Translations under genes and position numbers: made by a program | In this document: in pieces, positions 5,097 to 19,375 of the stretch | Numbering within the stretch: the stretch's first letter is position 1 | How the letters are laid out: each line of letters starts with the position of its first letter | Assembly: GCA_038046645.1 (NCBI GenBank) | Contig: JBBSVU010000006.1 | Coordinates: 169,196 to 193,977, forward strand | Origin: an archaeon | GTDB lineage: Archaea > Iainarchaeota > Iainarchaeia > Iainarchaeales > 0-14-0-20-34-12 | DNA length: 24,782 bases | Direction of reading: 5' to 3' | The notes under the pieces: generated by a model | Databases searched by the model: none | What the model was told of the DNA's origin: nothing | The model's input: only the letters and a program-made list of their open reading frames with translations

Positions 5097-6101
5097 ATGC
5101 CATCAAATATTTTTGAGGAATACAAAACAACAGCAGAAATTCCTGTGCCGGAAAAGCTTGTTGACCAGGTAATTGGGCAGGAGAATTCTGTCGAGCTTAT
5201 TAGAAAAGCTGCCTCGCAGAAAAGAAATGTGCTGCTTGTCGGTTTGCCTGGAACTGGAAAATCAATGTTAGCGCAGGCAATGGCTGAATTGATGCCTGCT
5301 GAGCAGCTTGAGGATGTAATTGTTTACGAAAATAATGTTGATCCGCAGAATCCTATTGTAAAAACAGCAAAAGCAGGTGAAGGAAAAAAAATTGTGGAGC
5401 AAGCACAATTGGAAGCGCAGAAGGAAGAAGGAAATCTGAGAATGATTTCAATGATTTTCCCTTTAGGCTGGTTTTTGCTTTCCTATATTATCTGGTCATT
5501 GAAAATGATTTCAGATATAGTGTACACAGGCACTTTATTATTAGGGGGATTTTTAATTGTTGGATTTGCATTAAGTTCTCAGTTAAGAACAAGGAATAAG
5601 GTTTCTGTGCCAAAGGTTCTGGTTGATAATTCAGGAAAAAAAATTGCCCCGTTTGCAGAAGGGACTGGTGCAAGGGCTGGGGCATTGCTTGGGGACGTGA
5701 GGCATGATCCGCTCCAGTCGTCAATTGACGAAGATTCATTGGTTGTTTGCTTAAATGGTATTTGGAAGGAAATTTCTTATGAAAAACTTTGGAATAGAAT
5801 AGTAAAGAAACATCCTGACTTAATTGAGAAACATGAGAAAGGTTACGAAGCAATTGTATTGCCCAAAAATGAAAATGTTTATGTTTGGGGCATGAAAGAG
5901 GGCAAAGTAGTTAAGTCAAGGATTTACTCCTTAAACAGAAGGCCTTATGAGGGCGAAGTTATTGAACTTTCGGTTGGAGAAAAGAAAATCACACTCACTC
6001 CTGAACATAAAGTTATTACAAAGAAGGGTAACAAAATTGCAGAAAAAATTTCAGAAAAAGATTTACTATTCAATCTTTCCTCACCAAAAAGCATCTGCTA
6101 G
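5097..6101 (+). CDS. lonB: LonB protease fragment 1 (Walker A, two TM helices) fused to split-intein N-half IntN1
   Basis: LVDQVIGQE, GLPGTGKS (Walker A), two hydrophobic helices, GALLGDVRHDPLQ, then intein-like sequence up to a stop at 6099-6101. Confidence 0.93.
   Translation: MPSNIFEEYKTTAEIPVPEKLVDQVIGQENSVELIRKAASQKRNVLLVGLPGTGKSMLAQAMAELMPAEQLEDVIVYENNVDPQNPIVKTAKAGEGKKIVEQAQLEAQKEEGNLRMISMIFPLGWFLLSYIIWSLKMISDIVYTGTLLLGGFLIVGFALSSQLRTRNKVSVPKVLVDNSGKKIAPFAEGTGARAGALLGDVRHDPLQSSIDEDSLVVCLNGIWKEISYEKLWNRIVKKHPDLIEKHEKGYEAIVLPKNENVYVWGMKEGKVVKSRIYSLNRRPYEGEVIELSVGEKKITLTPEHKVITKKGNKIAEKISEKDLLFNLSSPKSIC
5721..6098 (+). mobile_element. Split intein 1, N-half (IntN1, ~126 aa)
   Basis: Block A-like SIDEDSLVV directly after DPLQS; YEGEVIEL; block B ITLTPEHKV; no C-terminal intein motifs in this ORF. 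Confidence 0.85.
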
Positions 6102-6154
6102 ATTTAGTTAGCCGCAATTTCTTATTCCTCCAATTTCCTACTAATTATATTCTT

Positions 6155-6327
6155 TGAAATAATCGCCACCTCCTTATTGAATTTTTTCTTAGGACTCTGC
6201 TTTTCTCGACTTAAACCTTTCCCTGCCTTTGGCAGGTCGCTGGCGCTAAAGGTTTAATGTCTCCAAAAGCAGCAAAGCCGTCCAAGAAAAAATTCTTTGT
6301 TCGGAGGTGGCTCAAATGATTTTTTCA
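6155..6327 (+). promoter_or_regulatory. Long imperfect hairpin occluding the SD/start of the endonuclease gene
   Basis: Nested complementary segments: 6165-6173/6303-6311, 6179-6190/6284-6295, 6197-6204/6265-6272, 6211-6220/6248-6257, inner hairpin 6222-6236, outer 6155-6164/6318-6327 (1 mismatch). Confidence 0.75.
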
Positions 6328-7374
6328 GATAATCAATCACCGGAAATCTACTCTCAAAATAATTATAAGCCTGAAATACAGGCTTCTATTATGGAACCAA
6401 AAATCCTTGTTTCTGAGGAAGATATAATAAATACTTATTCTAAGGCAGAGCAATTTTCTTGCCAGAAATATTTTGAATATCAAAAATTGATGCAGGAAAA
6501 CCCTTCTTTCGGTTACAAAAAATGCGCTAAATTTCTTAGTATAAAGCAAGGGCAGGTGAGATGGTGGCACACAAAAGGGGCGAAAAGAGCAATTCCTTTG
6601 CCTTTGAAAGTAACTCAAAAATTAAAAGAAGTAGGCTTGCTTCCTTTCAATGAAAATCACAAGGATGCAGAAATAATCTTCAACATTCTTGGAACTCTTT
6701 TTGGTGATGGGGGTATTGATATTCGCTTCAATACTGTTGCTTTCATTTCTTCAGATAAAAGGGATGTTGATTTATGGCACTCTGATTTGCTCAGGATTTT
6801 TCCATTTGCTCAAGGAAAGACTCAAATTGTTGAGGGAGGAGAATACGGACATTCTTACAATATTCGCTGTTATGACCGTGCTGTTGTAAGATTTTTTGCT
6901 GCACTTGGTGCCCCTGTCGGAAGTAAAATTGTTACTGATTACTCTTTACCTAAATATTTTTCTGAGCTAAAAGGCAGATCATATAGAGCATTCTTTGATG
7001 GATTATTTTCTAGTGAAATCGCTATTCCAAGGTTTGTTAAAACTAAATATATCACCGACTATTTCAAGAATTTTAGTTTGAGCCTTTCAAAGGCAGAGTT
7101 TCTTGAGCAAAGCCATCTGGCTTTTATGAATGCAATTAAGCACTACTCAAAGAAAATTGGCATTAAGTGTACAGCCATAGTTAAGAAAGATAAATATCGT
7201 AATGAACCGCGGAAAGATGGCCATCATACTCACGGATATAGAATATTTTTCAGGACCAATATGGGCAATGCCTTATTTTTCAACAAAATCTTCCCTTTGT
7301 GTTATTCAGCAGCAAAGAAAGAAAAACTTCAAAAGGAAGTTGAGTTCTGCATTCAGCATAATCCACCCACCTAG
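6316..7374 (+). CDS. Free-standing intein-type LAGLIDADG homing endonuclease with N-terminal HTH
   Basis: ILGTLFGDGGI (motif 1), RFFAALGAPVGSK, FFDGLFSSE (motif 2); own SD GGAGGTG at 6303-6309, 6 nt before ATG 6316; no splicing motifs. Confidence 0.85.
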   Translation: MIFSDNQSPEIYSQNNYKPEIQASIMEPKILVSEEDIINTYSKAEQFSCQKYFEYQKLMQENPSFGYKKCAKFLSIKQGQVRWWHTKGAKRAIPLPLKVTQKLKEVGLLPFNENHKDAEIIFNILGTLFGDGGIDIRFNTVAFISSDKRDVDLWHSDLLRIFPFAQGKTQIVEGGEYGHSYNIRCYDRAVVRFFAALGAPVGSKIVTDYSLPKYFSELKGRSYRAFFDGLFSSEIAIPRFVKTKYITDYFKNFSLSLSKAEFLEQSHLAFMNAIKHYSKKIGIKCTAIVKKDKYRNEPRKDGHHTHGYRIFFRTNMGNALFFNKIFPLCYSAAKKEKLQKEVEFCIQHNPPT

Positions 7375-7534
7375 GCATTATTTTTGTTCTACAAAATTGC
7401 AAAAATCAATTTAATATCTTTAATAATAAGCGTAAGGAGGAAGGAATAGGTAGTGTAATTGAAATAGCTCTTGAGCACAGAAGAAAAAAAGCAAACCCAA
7501 TTACTTTAAATTTTGTTTATTTTATGTTGTCATT

Positions 7535-8353
7535 ATGCTAAGCAGAAGAAGAATTAACCTTTCACAGCTTTCAAGAGGAGAAAGGCATAGGATTAAATCA
7601 AGCAGGCCGAGGAGAAGGATTGCAAAAGAAGCTGCTAAACGAAGGGCACTTACTGATGCAAATATCAGGAGGACATTTGTAGGAATTTTCCCACATGATC
7701 GTGAATATATTCTTAAATCCGATTCACGAATTATTGGGGCGGGCAAAGGAAGATTAACCATCTCATTAGGTACATTGGTTGACCCTAAAACAGGCAAGAG
7801 CGGTTGCTTTGCTTTTAAGGTTTGCAGAATGCCAGACAATTTTGTTGAAGCCCATAAAAGGCACGTTATTTTTGGTGAGACTCACAGGTATAAATCCCTC
7901 TTTATGCCTGATTTCAAATCTGCAGAATCGTTTGATAACCATTATTTTTTAGAGTTAGCAGCACTTTATGATTTTAAGGTTGAACATGCACGGTTCAGAA
8001 GAATTGCCTCTTTAAGGATCCCAACTGTTTTTTCTAAGCTAGTGCCTATTGACCCTGCACAGGCTAATGGAATTCTTTTGGTTGAGGATTTAAGTGGGGG
8101 GGGGAGAAACAAGGTTGAAGAATTCCATAAATTCAATCATGCTAAAGTTTCAAATGCCCTAGAATTAATGACACAGTTTGAAAAATATTATCAAAAATTA
8201 TTGAAAGCGGGCATTAAAATAAGTAGCGAAGCAAGGCACGGGGAACATTCTTCTTTGAGGGAGGAAACTGAGAGAAGTTTCTTTGTTGTGATTGATCCAA
8301 AAACCCGCAAGGGAAAACTTGTCGCTGGTGACGCTGACCAGATTGAGTTTTGA
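7535..8353 (+). CDS. Hypothetical protein, Arg-rich N-terminus, possible atypical protein-kinase-like fold
   Basis: 272-aa ORF with ordered kinase-like motifs [17 protein letters not shown]...[29 protein letters not shown] at 7505-7510, about 25-30 nt upstream of ATG. The ORF is well supported; the fold is inferred. Confidence 0.55.
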
Positions 8354-8364
8354 AAAACAATACC

Positions 8365-8372
8365 TATTTAAC
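8365..8372 (+). promoter_or_regulatory. TATA-like box for LonB fragment 2 (possible leaderless transcript)
   Basis: TATTTAAC 25-32 nt upstream of ATG 8397; no SD present. Weak given the AT-rich background. Confidence 0.35.
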
Positions 8373-8396
8373 CCTTTTTTCTTTTATTTATTTTAT

Positions 8397-8519
8397 ATGC
8401 AGTTGAAAACAAAGAATGCAAGGATTTCTTCAAAAACTAAAAGAAAATTCAAAGGTCATGTTTACAACGTTACAACAGATACAGGCAACCTGTTTGTTGA
8501 AGATGTCCTTGTGTGCAAT
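8397..8519 (+). mobile_element. Split intein 1, C-half (IntC1, 41 aa)
   Basis: Basic N-terminus, block F-like [12 protein letters not shown], block G VLVCN followed by Ser+1 of the conserved Lon SGGLGTP. Confidence 0.85.
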
Positions 8520-10289
8520 TCAGGCGGCCTTGGAACCCCAGCGCATTTGCGAGTAGAAGTAGGATTAATCCACAAAGCAAACAAAGGTGTTTTGTTTATT
8601 GATGAACTTTCTGCATTAACCCCAAAAAGCCAGCAGGAACTTTTAACAGCAATGCAGGAAAAGAAATATTCAATTACAGGGCAAAGTGAAATGTCATCTG
8701 GTAGCATGGTAAGAACCGAGGCAGTGCCTTGTTTTACCCCCAAAACAAAGATTCTTACAGAAAATGGGGAAAAGCCCATTGGTTATTTTGTTGATTCTTT
8801 GATGACTAGTTTTTCAGATTCTGTTGAAATAAGCAATGGTGTAGAAACCCTAAACCTGCCAAAGGATAAATTTTTTGTTTTTGTTGCAAATGATAAATTA
8901 GGCCTATCTGAACTACAAAGAGTTTACCGGAAATCATTTAATGGAAAACTTATTCGTTTGACCTTCGATGATGGGACTGAGATATTAACTACGCCAGAAC
9001 ACCCAATTAAAACAGAAGATAGTTTTGTGAAAGCCAATGAAATTAAGGAAAATACCTTGGTTGAAACAGTGGATTCAATTGTCAATCTCAACAGTAGTAT
9101 AACAACCTATTCTTTGAATAACCAGAGAATGGCATTAACATATTTAAAATGGAAAAAATTTTTTTTACAATCAAATAAATCCAATTATGCTGTTGCAAAG
9201 CAGCTAGGGGTTGATCATAAAGTAGTGGCTAATTGGAAGAATAATGGTGTACCTATGGCTTTGCACTGTGTTAATTGGTTCGAAGCAAAAAATTTGCTGA
9301 ATCTTGCACTGGATGATCCTCGTTTATCTGTTATTGCTAAGTTGTGTGGTGCTTTATTTGGTGATGGGGGAATATCAAAAGAGATGAAGAAAATTTATTT
9401 TTGTACTGATTTCAACAGTCAGCATGATTTGTCTGATTTCAGCAAAGATTTAATTACTGTGTTTGGAGAATCTATCTCTAATAATATAAAAATAAGAAAA
9501 ACCCAAACAAGTAGTGGTGCAGGTTTAGAGCTATCTCTCAATAATGCCTTTGTTGCGAGGTTTTTCAACATACTAGGGGTTCCAAAAGGCGATAAGGTTA
9601 TGCAAGCTTTTGCTGTTCCAAATTGGGTTTATCTTAATAAGAATTTTGAGAAGGAATTCTTTTCTTCCTTAATCTTCTGTGAACTATATGGTAAAATCAG
9701 AAGTAGTCAAGATACGCCAACTTTTGTTATGGCTAAATTACAAAACATAGAGAAAGAGCATGTTTCTTTTTTGAATGAGATTAGAAGTTATTTGATTAAA
9801 AATGGCGTCAAAGTTTCTGAGATTATCAAAGGTAAAGAATATTTTAAATCCATATCTCAAAACAGAGAATTAGCAGCAACTTATTTATTCAAAATAAGGG
9901 GTTTGTATGGAAATATGTTGAAATTTAGCGAGGCAGTTAATGCCTATTATGCTACAACAAAGGGCAAGTTTATTGGTGAACACAATGCAAAAGGAAAAAT
10001 ATTTTTAGAAAATAAGAAGAATTTTGAAAATTTAATGAAACAATCCTTGCATTTGAGAAGTAAAGGCAAAACAATCAGACAATTAGAGGCCATTACTGGC
10101 ATTTCTAAAAATACAATCTTGAAAAATATCGAACCAACATATAAAAAATATTCAGAAGAAGATATGAAAAGAGTTTTCTTTTTACTTGAAAAAGGATTTA
10201 TTTCGAAACAAATCGCTAAAAAACTTATGATGCCCTACCAGACAGTTCTTTACTGGAAAAATAATTATTGGGGTGCTGCTAATGTTTAA
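8397..10289 (+). CDS. lonB: LonB fragment 2: IntC1 (41 aa) - 70-aa Lon segment with Walker B - IntN2 with LAGLIDADG endonuclease (519 aa)
   Basis: Probable start ATG 8397: MQLKTK...[21 protein letters not shown] | [15 protein letters not shown]...VLFIDEL...VRTEAVP | CFTPKTKIL...TTPEHP...GALFGDGGI...stop. Confidence 0.92.
8730..10286 (+). mobile_element. Split intein 2, N-half with LAGLIDADG endonuclease and HTH-like segments
   Basis: Block [10 protein letters not shown], block [29 protein letters not shown], two C-terminal HTH-like segments; ends without blocks F/G. Confidence 0.85.
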
Positions 10290-10401
10290 TAAATCATTTA
10301 AAAAGGTCATTACGGTAAGCGAAGAACCGTTTATTGGTAATGTTTATAATTTAAAAACAGCAGATGGGACATACATAGCTAATTCAGTAATCGTTCATAA
10401 T
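10282..10401 (+). mobile_element. Split intein 2, C-half (IntC2, 40 aa)
   Basis: Blocks F/G ending in canonical HN followed by Cys+1. Confidence 0.85.
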
Positions 10402-11481
10402 TGCGATTTTGTTCTTGTTGCAGCAGGAAATTACCAGGATTTGGAAAAGGTGCATCCTGCTTTGCGTTCGAGGATCCGCGGCTATGGGTATGAAATTTAT
10501 ATGAATTATGATGTTCCTGATACCGAAGAAAATATTCATAAATTAATTCAGTTTGTTGCACAGGAAGTGAAAAAGGATGGGAAGATTCCGCATTTTTCTA
10601 AGGAAGCTGTTGATGAATTAATTTTAGATGCGCGCAGAAGAGCAAACAGGAAGAACCGCTTAACCCTGCAGTTAAGGGATTTGGGCGGATTGTTGAGGGC
10701 AGCAGGGGATATTGCAATTAAAAAAAAGCATTCTGTTGTCCAAAAGGAAGATCTTTTTGAAGCAAGGATTTCAGCAAAAACCCTGGAGCAGCAAATGGTT
10801 GACAAGATGATTGAGACAAAGAAAGAATATAATGTTTATTTGAGTAAGGGAAGTGCAATTGGCAGGGTAAATGGTTTGGCAGTTACTGGGGATGGATCTG
10901 CAGGATTGATTTTGCCATTAGAAGCAGAAATCACGCCAGCAGCCTCACAGTCTGAAGGGAAAATAATTGCAACAGGAAAATTGGGGGAAATAGCAAAGGA
11001 AGCAGTGCAAAATGTTTCTGCGATAATTAAAAAATTAAGTGGGAAAGATATTACAAAGAATGATTTGCACATTCAGTTTTTGCAAACCTATGAAGGAGTG
11101 GAAGGAGACTCAGCATCAGTTTCTGTTGCCACTGCAATTATTTCCGCTTTGGAAAGCATTCCAGTAAAGCAGGATTTGGCAATGACCGGTTCATTGTCTG
11201 TGCGAGGAGAAGTTTTGCCTGTTGGTGGCATTACATCAAAGATTCAGGCAGCAATACAAGCAGGTTTTTCTGAAGTGATAATTCCAAAATCAAATATGCA
11301 GGATATTGTTTTGCCAAAGAAAGAATTAGATAAAATAAGAATAATCCCAGTATCCTCTCTTACCGAAGTTTTGGATATTGCCTTTGTAAAAGGTGCAAAC
11401 AAAAACAAGCTGATTAAATCATTGAACAAAATAATTTCAATCGCAGCAATTAATTTGCCAATTGCAAAATCAGCTGCTTAA
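10282..11481 (+). CDS. lonB: LonB fragment 3: IntC2 (40 aa) fused to AAA+ lid and Lon protease domain
   Basis: ATG 10282 overlaps the upstream stop and has GGGGTG 6 nt before it; [20 protein letters not shown] | [15 protein letters not shown] (Arg finger), EGDSAS (catalytic Ser), GGITSK (catalytic Lys). Confidence 0.93.
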
Positions 11482-16879: not shown

Positions 16880-17734
16880 ATGACGAAACACAATAATCCT
16901 AAAATTCAGAGGAAAAGTATTTCTGATAATAAACAAGAACCCAAAATCAAATCATTGAAGCAGAGGCTTGCATTTTTGCGATGGCTTGACCCATTTACCT
17001 ATGTTGATATTTTTATACTCCCAAAAATAAATCCTAGCGAGAATAAAACAATTACAAATATTATCTATGTTATTTCAGCATTCATCTTTGCGTTTGCATT
17101 TTATTCCTTGTTCGGTTTTTTGCTTTCCACAAATTATCCTGCAACAGTTGTTCTTTCAGGGAGCATGGAGCCAGTTTTTTACCGTGGCGATATTTTAATT
17201 GTTCAGGGTATTTCAGCAGAAACACTTATTGCGCCAGAAATCTCTTTAGATATTGAATCACTTGAAAATGTTTCAACATTTTTTTATGCTAATGGTTACT
17301 GCTCTTTAACCGGAAGCACTTCCCCAGTAAAATGTTTGCAATTATTAAATCCTGTGCTTGCGAATAAAATTTCCCTAGGCAATTTTACCACTAATGAAAT
17401 AAGGTTTTCTGATGGCAGGGTTCTGCCAATTGAAACATCTGGTGACATTGTCATTTACTATTCAAAGCTGCAGAACAAGGAGATTGTCCACAGGGCTGTG
17501 GCAAAAATAAAAGCAAAAGACGGCATTTATGTCCTTACAAAAGGTGACTCAAAGCAAAATCCATTTATAGATCAGGAAGGCGGGATTGTGGAATACGCAA
17601 TAAATGTAAATGACCTTTACGGAAAGGTAATTTTCAAGATTCCGCTTTTGGGCTATGTAAAGCTTTTGCTTCTTGATGATCCTATGCAGTTAATAAAAGG
17701 CTGTTATCTGACAAACACTTGCGTTCTTCCATAG
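16880..17734 (+). CDS. Signal peptidase I (S26, Sec11-type)
   Basis: TM anchor then VVLSGSMEP (Ser), RGD, IVHR (His), TKGD, GKV..KIP.LGY. Start ATG 16880. Confidence 0.9.
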   Translation: MTKHNNPKIQRKSISDNKQEPKIKSLKQRLAFLRWLDPFTYVDIFILPKINPSENKTITNIIYVISAFIFAFAFYSLFGFLLSTNYPATVVLSGSMEPVFYRGDILIVQGISAETLIAPEISLDIESLENVSTFFYANGYCSLTGSTSPVKCLQLLNPVLANKISLGNFTTNEIRFSDGRVLPIETSGDIVIYYSKLQNKEIVHRAVAKIKAKDGIYVLTKGDSKQNPFIDQEGGIVEYAINVNDLYGKVIFKIPLLGYVKLLLLDDPMQLIKGCYLTNTCVLP

Positions 17735-17769
17735 GAAGGTTTAAAATAATAAATCAGCAATTGTTTTGT

Positions 17770-18519
17770 ATGATTTTATCTTTGGAAAATGCTATCTCTT
17801 TCAAAAGATGCATTGATGCTATTTCTGTCCTGATTGATGAAGCGGAATTTTCAATAACTGAAAATGGTCTGGAATTAAGGGCGACAGATCCAAGCCAAAT
17901 AAGCATGATTGATTTCAAGATAAACAAAAGCGCATTCAAGCAGTTTGATGTGAAAGAGGACATAAAATTAGGCATTGACATAGGCTATTTGAGCCAAATC
18001 TTAGGAAGGGCAAAAAAAGATGATTCCATTTCTTTAGATTTAAATGCAACTAAAAGCTCCTTGAATGTTACATTCTCAGTAGGCAATTCCAAAAGGGCAT
18101 TTTCTGTTCCATTAATAGACATATCACAGGCACAATTGCCTTCATTAAATATTGATTTCGATTCAACAATAACCTTGAAAGCAGATTCAATAAAAGAAGC
18201 GATGAAGGATGCTGCCCTGATATCTTCCTATGTCGTAATCCTGGCACAAGCTGATAAATTTGTTGCAGAAGCAAACAGCAGCAAAGGGCATTTAGTTAAT
18301 GAAATATCTGCAAAAGATGCAGCAATAAAGGAATTCAAGGTAAGGAAGGAATGCAGAAGCATGTTCCCCTTGGAATACCTGCAGAATATGTTAAAAGCTG
18401 CTGAATCAAATGATTTTATTGAGATTAGCATGAAGAATAATGCGCCTATCCGCATATTTTACCCAATAGGCAAGGCAGAAATTACCTATTATCTGGCGCC
18501 AAGGATTGAAACAGAATAA
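17770..18519 (+). CDS. pcn: DNA sliding clamp PCNA, copy 1
   Basis: LRATDPSQISMIDF and canonical C-terminus YYLAPRIE; 249 aa from ATG 17770. Confidence 0.95.
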   Translation: MILSLENAISFKRCIDAISVLIDEAEFSITENGLELRATDPSQISMIDFKINKSAFKQFDVKEDIKLGIDIGYLSQILGRAKKDDSISLDLNATKSSLNVTFSVGNSKRAFSVPLIDISQAQLPSLNIDFDSTITLKADSIKEAMKDAALISSYVVILAQADKFVAEANSSKGHLVNEISAKDAAIKEFKVRKECRSMFPLEYLQNMLKAAESNDFIEISMKNNAPIRIFYPIGKAEITYYLAPRIETE

Positions 18520-18655
18520 AATGCACCAGCACTAAAAGGGTTTATATTCTCTTATTTGTTATTTGTATAATATTGGTTTGAAGTAAATCTAATATCAAAG
18601 GCCAAAAATAAAGAAACAAAATTTGCCCTTTGATATGAATTTAATAAGGATAATT

Positions 18656-19375
18656 ATGATTGTTCTTGAAAATATAAAACAATTGCAGACAGCAATAAAA
18701 TCCATTTCAAATTTCATTTCGGAAGGAAATTTTAGGTTTAATGACAAAGGAATTGCGTTAAGGGCAATTGATCCAAGCCAAATTGTATTGGTAAATTATC
18801 TAGCCCCAAAAGGCATTTTCAAGAAATTTTCTGTTGAACCCTCATTAATAGGAATTAATATTGAGGATTTTGAAAAGATAATGCGAAGGGCTTTTGCAAA
18901 TGATGTTATGGAATTATCCCTTGAGGATTCATTTTTGAATATCCGATTTTTAGGGGATTTGGACCGAAATTTTAAACTCTCATTGATTGAGTTGAATGAA
19001 GAAGAGGCATCCTTGCCTGATATCGCATTCACTGCAAAGGTAACAATAAAAGCAAGGATTCTTCAGGAAACATTAAAGGATGCATCATTGTTTGGCAGTT
19101 CAATTGTGCTGAACATAAAGGACAATGTTCTCACAATGGAAGCAAGGGGCCAGCAGGGCACTTTAAAAACACTGATAAAAAAAGAATGCGCAGCTGTTGA
19201 TTCAAAGGATGAGATTAATAACAAATATTCATTGAACTTCTTTGAGAATTTGGTTAAGGAAGCAGATCCAGAATCTGAATTGAAGATTGAATTGAAGACC
19301 GAATCCCCAATGAAGATAAGTTATAGAATCGGGGATTCAGAGATACAGTTCTATCTTGCGCACATGATACTCTAA
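18656..19375 (+). CDS. pcn: DNA sliding clamp PCNA, copy 2 (divergent)
   Basis: LRAIDPSQIVLVNY, KYSLNFF, PMKISY, C-terminus FYLAHMIL. Start could be 18635. Confidence 0.9.
   Translation: MIVLENIKQLQTAIKSISNFISEGNFRFNDKGIALRAIDPSQIVLVNYLAPKGIFKKFSVEPSLIGINIEDFEKIMRRAFANDVMELSLEDSFLNIRFLGDLDRNFKLSLIELNEEEASLPDIAFTAKVTIKARILQETLKDASLFGSSIVLNIKDNVLTMEARGQQGTLKTLIKKECAAVDSKDEINNKYSLNFFENLVKEADPESELKIELKTESPMKISYRIGDSEIQFYLAHMIL

Follow-up and report, generated by a model that had tools for sequence, protein, structure and literature searches.

Split inteins and the genes that they interrupt are known in several forms. The fractured genes described by Dassa et al. 2009 from marine metagenomes are mainly phage DNA-metabolism genes and, in the accessible part of that paper, carry GIY-YIG or Vsr-like enzymes that by its account are not known in inteins and are modelled as invaders (PMC2677866). 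The same source covers the uncoupled natural split inteins of cyanobacterial DnaE and Nanoarchaeum equitans PolB. In phage HEG-islands (named for homing endonuclease genes), homing endonucleases have been proposed to mobilise cargo by recombinational repair (PMC10448857), and for haloarchaeal inteins both homing and co-conversion have been demonstrated (PMC10643990). The locus described here lies in a 24,782-nt stretch of archaeal DNA, the window (assembly GCA_038046645.1, contig JBBSVU010000006.1, positions 169,196 to 193,977 of the forward strand), in which the gene of the LonB protease, lonB, is broken by an intein (intein 1) whose two splicing halves are separated by a free endonuclease gene and a passenger gene.

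The reading favoured here is that lonB is broken at a known intein site, that the halves likely trans-splice and that the endonuclease probably copies the cassette in its entirety, passengers and all, to lonB alleles with an empty site. For the family of such loci, homing that carries cargo into empty sites appears reasonably likely from the comparisons of relatives. The balance tips slightly towards a broader proposal, in which a homing split intein would serve as a cargo-carrying mobile element of DPANN archaea: a cassette with fixed borders inside a housekeeping gene, which could not be deleted piecemeal without loss of LonB and which, using no integrase or transposase, would drive accessory genes and even entire diversity-generating retroelements into empty lonB genes across species.

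The split lonB locus

The host is an Iainarchaeales-like archaeon with a genome of 1.17 Mb that is 89% complete, and where a habitat is named for the sequencing runs containing locus DNA, it is a groundwater metagenome; no RNA run is listed among the public runs. All of the parts of the split locus in the window are on the forward strand. lonB consists of three open reading frames (ORFs) that jointly span the NCBIfam LonB model end to end, with matches to lon_rel (608 positions) at 3-197, 191-267 and 266-607 on the three pieces in turn; the first piece also scores above the cut-off of intein_Nterm. The first ORF (5097-6101) joins the LonB N-extein (5097-5717; 207 amino acids [aa] with Walker A and a membrane segment, ending in HDPLQ) to IntN, the N-terminal half of intein 1 (5718-6101; 127 aa and a stop). 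The endonuclease frame (6316-7374) opens 214 nt past the IntN stop in a different frame, and the passenger gene (7535-8353) encodes 272 aa. The second lonB ORF (8397-10289) carries IntC, the C-terminal half of intein 1 (8397-8519; 41 aa ending in VCN), the middle extein (8520-8729; 70 aa with the +1 Ser and Walker B) and the N-part of intein 2, in which the endonuclease is still fused, a singly split state (8730-10289). The third ORF (10282-11481) joins IntC of intein 2 (10282-10401) to the C-extein with the protease domain.

The ORFs and family models bear out the division of intein 1 into IntN, a free endonuclease gene, a passenger gene and IntC that was read in a first-pass annotation from the letters alone, and the ORF map bears out its placement of the LAGLIDADG frame; a further unrelated gene does precede IntC. 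That annotation started the intein at 5721. Because empty alleles read DPLQ/SGG, intein 1 starts at Ser 5718, and it ends at Asn 8519. A contig from an independent study (run X3) spans 5448-9056 with 2 differences, and since it crosses the locus, the arrangement is not an assembly artefact. Runs X3 and X8 differ at 2 silent positions (8531 and 8537), directly past the IntC junction.

Class 1 inteins have an N-terminal Ser or Cys, a TxxH in block B, a terminal Asn and a Ser, Cys or Thr at +1. Intein 1 has the residues of a class 1 split intein (Ser1, TPEH and VCN/S); its penultimate residue is Cys, not His, at a position that varies in one-piece relatives too. IntN, IntC and the endonuclease are under purifying selection wherever synonymous divergence (dS) is unsaturated; between IntC and its same-genus copy, dS is 0.61 and nonsynonymous divergence (dN) 0.037. 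No second lonB was found in this 89%-complete genome. Because the halves are conserved and lonB is single-copy, LonB is likely rejoined by protein trans-splicing, and trans-splicing together with an intein origin of the endonuclease can be held with high confidence. Intein 2 (8730-10401) is likewise split, between its endonuclease and IntC, so LonB here would require two trans-splicing steps. The ORFs of intein 2 overlap by 8, 1 or 4 nt depending on the genome; these overlaps give both frames, which makes a programmed frameshift unlikely. Relatives have two further LonB intein sites, one 13 residues past the intein 1 site (site a), at HLRVE/C, and one in the Walker A region (loci L033:3880-5445 in G001, L041:2551-3890 in G003 and L082 in G174).

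The endonuclease and its origin

The free enzyme has 352 aa when read from 6316 and 327 aa from its likely start at ATG 6391, which is common to relatives; the database protein (P0001) also has 327 aa. Its two motifs, ILGTLFGDG and FFDGLFSSE, retain the acidic catalytic residues of LAGLIDADG homing endonucleases, and a homologue 58% identical to it has the LAGLIDADG fold, resembling I-Tsp061I, I-DmoI and intein enzymes, so that the fold is assigned through that homologue. A Pfam search with the enzyme gave no match and a sequence search of the PDB gave 0 matches; named homologues are mostly Candidatus Diapherotrites (Iainarchaeota) proteins.

The endonuclease descends from inteins at the same LonB site. 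All 19 of its longer homologues have a LonB N-terminal Pfam match: 5 are one-piece LonB-intein proteins, 13 are fusions of LonB N-extein, IntN and endonuclease, and 1 (677 aa) is unclassified and fails the motif test. One-piece inteins occupy the site in G033, G046 and G050, with enzymes 34-36% identical to the free one, and a two-piece form is found in L126; the contiguous, singly split and doubly split states that the first-pass annotation proposed to look for among relatives thus all exist, as one-, two- and three-piece forms. Within the order, all 35 close matches (at least 45% identity, E < 1e-85) lie inside this lonB gap. In a tree of 35 rows, a subset of an 83-row set, free enzymes form one clade (support 98/99) among the site-a enzymes, and the free and site-a enzymes together are split from the intein 2 enzymes at 100/100. 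A single clade of all split forms is rejected (approximately unbiased [AU] test, p 0.015), so fracturing likely occurred more than once.

These comparisons support derivation from an intein at the same site, with intein 2 only a distant cousin (25% identity to its enzyme over 312 aa, E 8e-21). The annotation had proposed that the endonuclease is intein 1's own domain cut free, and had named two observations that would tell against this, a grouping with unrelated free-standing enzymes and the lack of any contiguous relative; the enzyme groups with same-site LonB intein enzymes, and contiguous relatives exist. Its argument had been an alignment of the enzyme's start to intein 2. The segment concerned does lie in the 312-aa alignment, at residues 30-46 of the 6316 frame and not at its start, and it is the same-site relatives, rather than intein 2, that support the descent.

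Control signals and gap contents

Between IntN and the endonuclease lies a long conserved RNA hairpin of 147 nt (6165-6311), in which GCCACCTCC at 6165-6173 pairs with GGAGGTGGC at 6303-6311 and so buries a Shine-Dalgarno (SD) sequence. It folds with -66.4 kcal/mol (z -8.1), and its pattern is present in 19 of 42 loci. In an alignment of 18 of the 19 (G173 was omitted for an insertion), 16 of 46 pairs have changed on both sides, against 9.3 after shuffling (0 of 500), and pairing reaches 83% against 42-61% in slid controls, both values that relatedness can inflate. The hairpin is likely a translational brake on the endonuclease. Rfam gave no credible match to it, the one match (E 0.69) being at chance level, and it is not a dispersed repeat, being present once in the genome. 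The SD that the annotation assigned to the endonuclease is there (GGAGGTG, 6303-6309), buried in the hairpin, and the shared start is likely the later ATG. In 12 relatives the buried SD heads an acidic ORF of 44-53 aa that ends right before the endonuclease (for example L056:5893-6036 on the minus strand, and 11 other loci), possibly an inhibitor or leader peptide; this ORF is missing in the window, where its start is fused in frame with the endonuclease.

Archaeal promoters have a characteristic spacing, on which basis TATA-like sites are taken here as promoters. A conserved CACCGG motif with a TATA-like TTATAA (6338-6368), 28 nt upstream of ATG 6391, is likely the endonuclease's own archaeal promoter; across loci such hexamers stand at -28 or at -31 to -36 from the inner ATG. 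The passenger has its own TATA-like site at 7505. Another, ATTTAA, lies about 30 nt 5' of the IntC start (8365-8372), and 27 of 40 pattern matches before IntC in 28 loci fall at -26 to -32. This putative promoter likely frees expression of the C-half from whatever the gap contains. A sigma-70 promoter scan stayed at chance level, the method not being apt for archaea.

The survey set comprised 196 genomes of the order, 186 of them with a lonB match, and split classes were taken from the 150 matches listed out of 199. The loci fetched were those listed with an IntN-length match, minus G101 (contig end), plus 3 found via the endonuclease. lonB is split at this site in 44 loci from 43 genomes and 17 families, 14 of the contigs ending before IntC; with G139, G164 and G074 added, at least 46 of the 186 lonB-matching genomes are split, in 18 families. 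In Woesearchaeota the three-part layout recurs in 3 of 5 loci, each with IntN, enzyme and IntC together on its contig, and 2 of these 3 have extra gap ORFs. Locus G134:C43 (L064) is a second lonB in G134; its exteins group with family f2, and the contig is likely misbinned.

Cassettes measure 0.8-5 kb, and among the 30 complete gaps a full-length endonuclease is found in 22, intact in 20. A script found an extra ORF of at least 90 aa in 21 of the 30, one of these an antisense frame over the hairpin, which leaves about 20 gaps with cargo. The annotation had called for a check for variable passenger genes among relatives, and the cargo does vary widely: phospholipase-C-like proteins, AAA_14/DUF4143 ATPases, a nucleotidyltransferase, a TPR protein, an aspartate decarboxylase, a WYL protein and a reverse transcriptase with Avd-like and Lcl-domain neighbours. 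The last set lies between IntN and IntC in L049 (G144), as a reverse transcriptase, an Avd-like gene and a pilin-like gene with an Lcl domain by Pfam, with similar ORFs in L131 (G164), and resembles a diversity-generating retroelement. Of the 196 genomes, 25 have the phospholipase-like cargo; among 29 copies examined, 11 lie inside the gap, and the intein-borne copies cluster on the tree (3 changes against 9.0 after shuffling, 0 of 500).

Movement of the cassette and its cargo

The mechanism envisaged would start with an ancestral one-piece intein that acquired stops and starts flanking its endonuclease, at least two times in DPANN archaea. With a TATA-like site before IntC, the C-half would be made whatever fills the gap, and the gap would be a safe landing pad in which genes could insert, swap and be deleted. 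The endonuclease, restrained by the SD-burying hairpin, would cut the empty DPLQ/SGG site, and repair would copy all of the DNA between the exteins into the cut allele. Cassettes would also recombine among themselves, giving IntN, endonuclease, cargo and IntC separate histories.

The clearest case of apparent homing involves three genomes of one genus, G104, G106 and G107. G104 has an empty site and is the sister of G106 (exteins 96-97% identical in aa, with five flanking genes in agreement). Yet G106 has a 2.5-kb cassette in common with the more distant G107, and this cassette includes a cargo gene for 210 aa that is present in these 2 of 196 genomes only. At four-fold degenerate sites the two are identical at 41 of 49 positions in the cargo (28% expected by chance) and 92 of 145 in the intein parts, against 83 of 183 in the exteins (p 8e-7, 8e-4). 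From -30 to +90 nt around the site, G106 sides with G107 by 13:7, against 64:210 elsewhere (p 2e-4). Homing into an empty allele, accompanied by co-conversion, would be expected to leave such a pattern. Among seven cargo-sharing pairs, two are positive: G106/G107 and G129/G127 (p 2e-4). Pilin-like cargo pairs of family f10 were dropped at a chance identity of 64-80%.

Parts of the cassette have also moved sideways. The extein tree follows host families (support 99 for f10, 93 for f23 without G134:C43 and 100 for f30), whereas the endonuclease tree rejects monophyly of f10, f20 and f23 (AU p 0.005, 7e-6 and 0.02; G134:C43 was omitted from the f23 test because its exteins group with f2). In G112 (f16), enzyme and cargo both group with f23 copies. 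The IntN of the window is 70-72% identical to f10 copies and 51% to that of the same-genus genome, with exteins at 94-95%. Over its first 30 nt, five f10 copies agree with it at 28-29 positions, against 19-26 in flanking extein windows, so that identity to f10 rises exactly at the extein-intein junction. No other endonuclease exceeds 62% identity to that of the window, and IntC is nearest to its own genus. Since IntN, endonuclease and IntC differ in their nearest relatives, the parts recombine as modules. The first IntN codons (5718-5747 in the window, and in relatives) fall into several types, starting with Ser, Cys or, in one-piece forms, Thr, that are scattered over families and may reflect intein-for-intein replacement. 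The first 14 nt of the window IntN are a perfect palindrome common to f10 and G176.

The passenger of the window has a different history. It has no Pfam or NCBIfam match and a basic N-terminus, and its AlphaFold2 model (predicted local distance difference test 89.9) puts kinase folds on top in both structure searches, every match listed being a kinase fold, with weak scores (template-modelling score 0.3-0.4; Z 9.4, root-mean-square deviation 3.3, 139 aa aligned), so a minimal protein-kinase-like fold is predicted. It has 23 relatives in a representative set, itself counted, matches in 6 of 196 genomes, and 2 paralogues elsewhere in its own genome at 36-44%. As a gap gene it is common only to this genome and a same-genus genome, where a deletion of about 2 kb took the endonuclease and reduced the passenger to its last codons; the passenger was thus in place before the species split and is dispensable. 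Most likely it entered from the local paralogue family in the genus ancestor. No insertion-element ends were seen around it among the largest repeats listed in a repeat search. The genomes compared hold no trace of its moving by homing, and it would travel with the cassette only when homing next occurs. The first-pass idea of a split intein as a vehicle for cargo genes is accordingly carried by the one trio and by discordant trees in relatives, not by the passenger that suggested it. Elsewhere in the window, two tandem genes (17719-18519 and 18623-19375) are PCNA sliding clamp-like by eye.

Several observations weigh against homing as the driver of this distribution. Of the 30 complete gaps, 8 have no full endonuclease and a further 2 have a broken one, and 7 gaps hold cargo but no enzyme, so cargo gathers without homing; 18 of the 29 phospholipase-like copies examined are outside inteins. 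There is one clean trio, and measured against the G104/G106 exteins its cassette, taken as a whole, is younger by no more than a narrow margin (133/194 vs 130/214, p 0.06; p 0.001 for the cargo by itself). Of the other cargo-sharing pairs, 3 show no excess at silent sites, and in 2 base composition confounds the comparison; for G112/G128 and G012/G003 the trees agree without a silent-site excess, probably through saturation. Family f20 is weakly one group on the extein tree. Charge complementarity between IntN and IntC was looked for and none was seen. The nearest neighbour of IntC is within the same family in 19 of 22 cases, which fits long vertical inheritance with losses. An ancient, vertically inherited split, with empty alleles as losses, the gap as a neutral insertion hotspot and parts moved only by ordinary homologous recombination between already split alleles, would account for this, for the persistence of cargo in enzyme-less gaps, for the mosaic of nearest relatives in the window and for the same-genus genome that is still split after losing its enzyme and most of the passenger. 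For the trio it would require that G104 lost its cassette precisely and that a replacement took place in G106 as well, and those two events alone would not produce a co-conversion patch centred on the site. It also sits poorly with enzymes that are intact in 20 of 30 gaps, keep their catalytic acids and have dN far below dS, and with the jump in identity to f10 at the junction, and is judged unlikely.

Invasion of a mini-intein by a foreign free-standing endonuclease, which fractured it and left the one-piece relatives as later re-fusions, follows the model that Dassa et al. proposed for phage loci in the accessible part of their paper (PMC2677866), and the deep root of the endonuclease tree is weak enough (91/84, on a long branch) to leave it some room. 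It is nevertheless very improbable, given the LonB match in every longer homologue, a free protein that starts at the residues following IntN in one-piece inteins, close homologues found inside the gap and none found outside, and a rejection of single-clade split forms that favours repeated fracturing over one invasion; the present tree also suggests, with moderate support, that one-piece site-a inteins are basal. That the lonB pieces reflect gene decay to a pseudogene or an assembly error is scarcely credible: the genomes are metagenome bins and one locus looks misbinned, but the gene is single-copy with intact pieces and an independent contig across it, the same layout recurs in dozens of genomes and in Woesearchaeota, and purifying selection is strong. 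Homing of the split cassette into empty lonB genes stays the favoured account.

One-piece, two-piece and three-piece states and states with no enzyme all occur at a single site, a series through which the origin of split inteins can be tested and which favours release of the intein's own enzyme over foreign invasion. If homing carries cargo, the cassette would act in small-genome archaea as a natural gene drive that spreads accessory genes. The lonB loci are also a source of dozens of natural split inteins whose C-half is 41 residues long, and LonB would be a protein that needs two non-interfering trans-splicing reactions. No literature on a split LonB intein or on cargo in split inteins was found in a search that covered mainly open-access papers.

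Among known systems, the one-piece LonB inteins (P0155, P0156 and P0160-P0162; G033, G046 and G050) share the site, homologous splicing blocks and an endonuclease 31-36% identical; unlike the window, they are encoded in a single frame, splice in cis and have no room for cargo. Like the DnaE and PolB split inteins, as the accessible text presents them, lonB distributes a housekeeping protein over two genes that each carry half an intein, but there the halves are encoded apart from each other and no endonuclease gene separates them, whereas the lonB halves have stayed together in a single cassette, along with an enzyme that is apparently mobile. The HEG-islands, as far as the available text describes them, have endonucleases that flank essential phage operons without discrete borders; in lonB, a chromosomal gene, the cargo is accessory and sits within a split intein whose borders are fixed. 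The closest likeness is to the fractured genes of Dassa et al., which in the text available have the same one-strand order of host N-part with IntN, endonuclease gene, and IntC with host C-part, a hairpin in the 5' region of the endonuclease and, in one locus, no endonuclease. The lonB loci differ from them in being a cellular protease gene, in using the intein's own LAGLIDADG enzyme rather than a GIY-YIG or Vsr-like one, and in a gap with variable cargo and a TATA-like site for each unit, where that text describes no cargo genes. The lonB cassette is a new archaeal version of the fractured gene, with its own endonuclease released and a slot for cargo.

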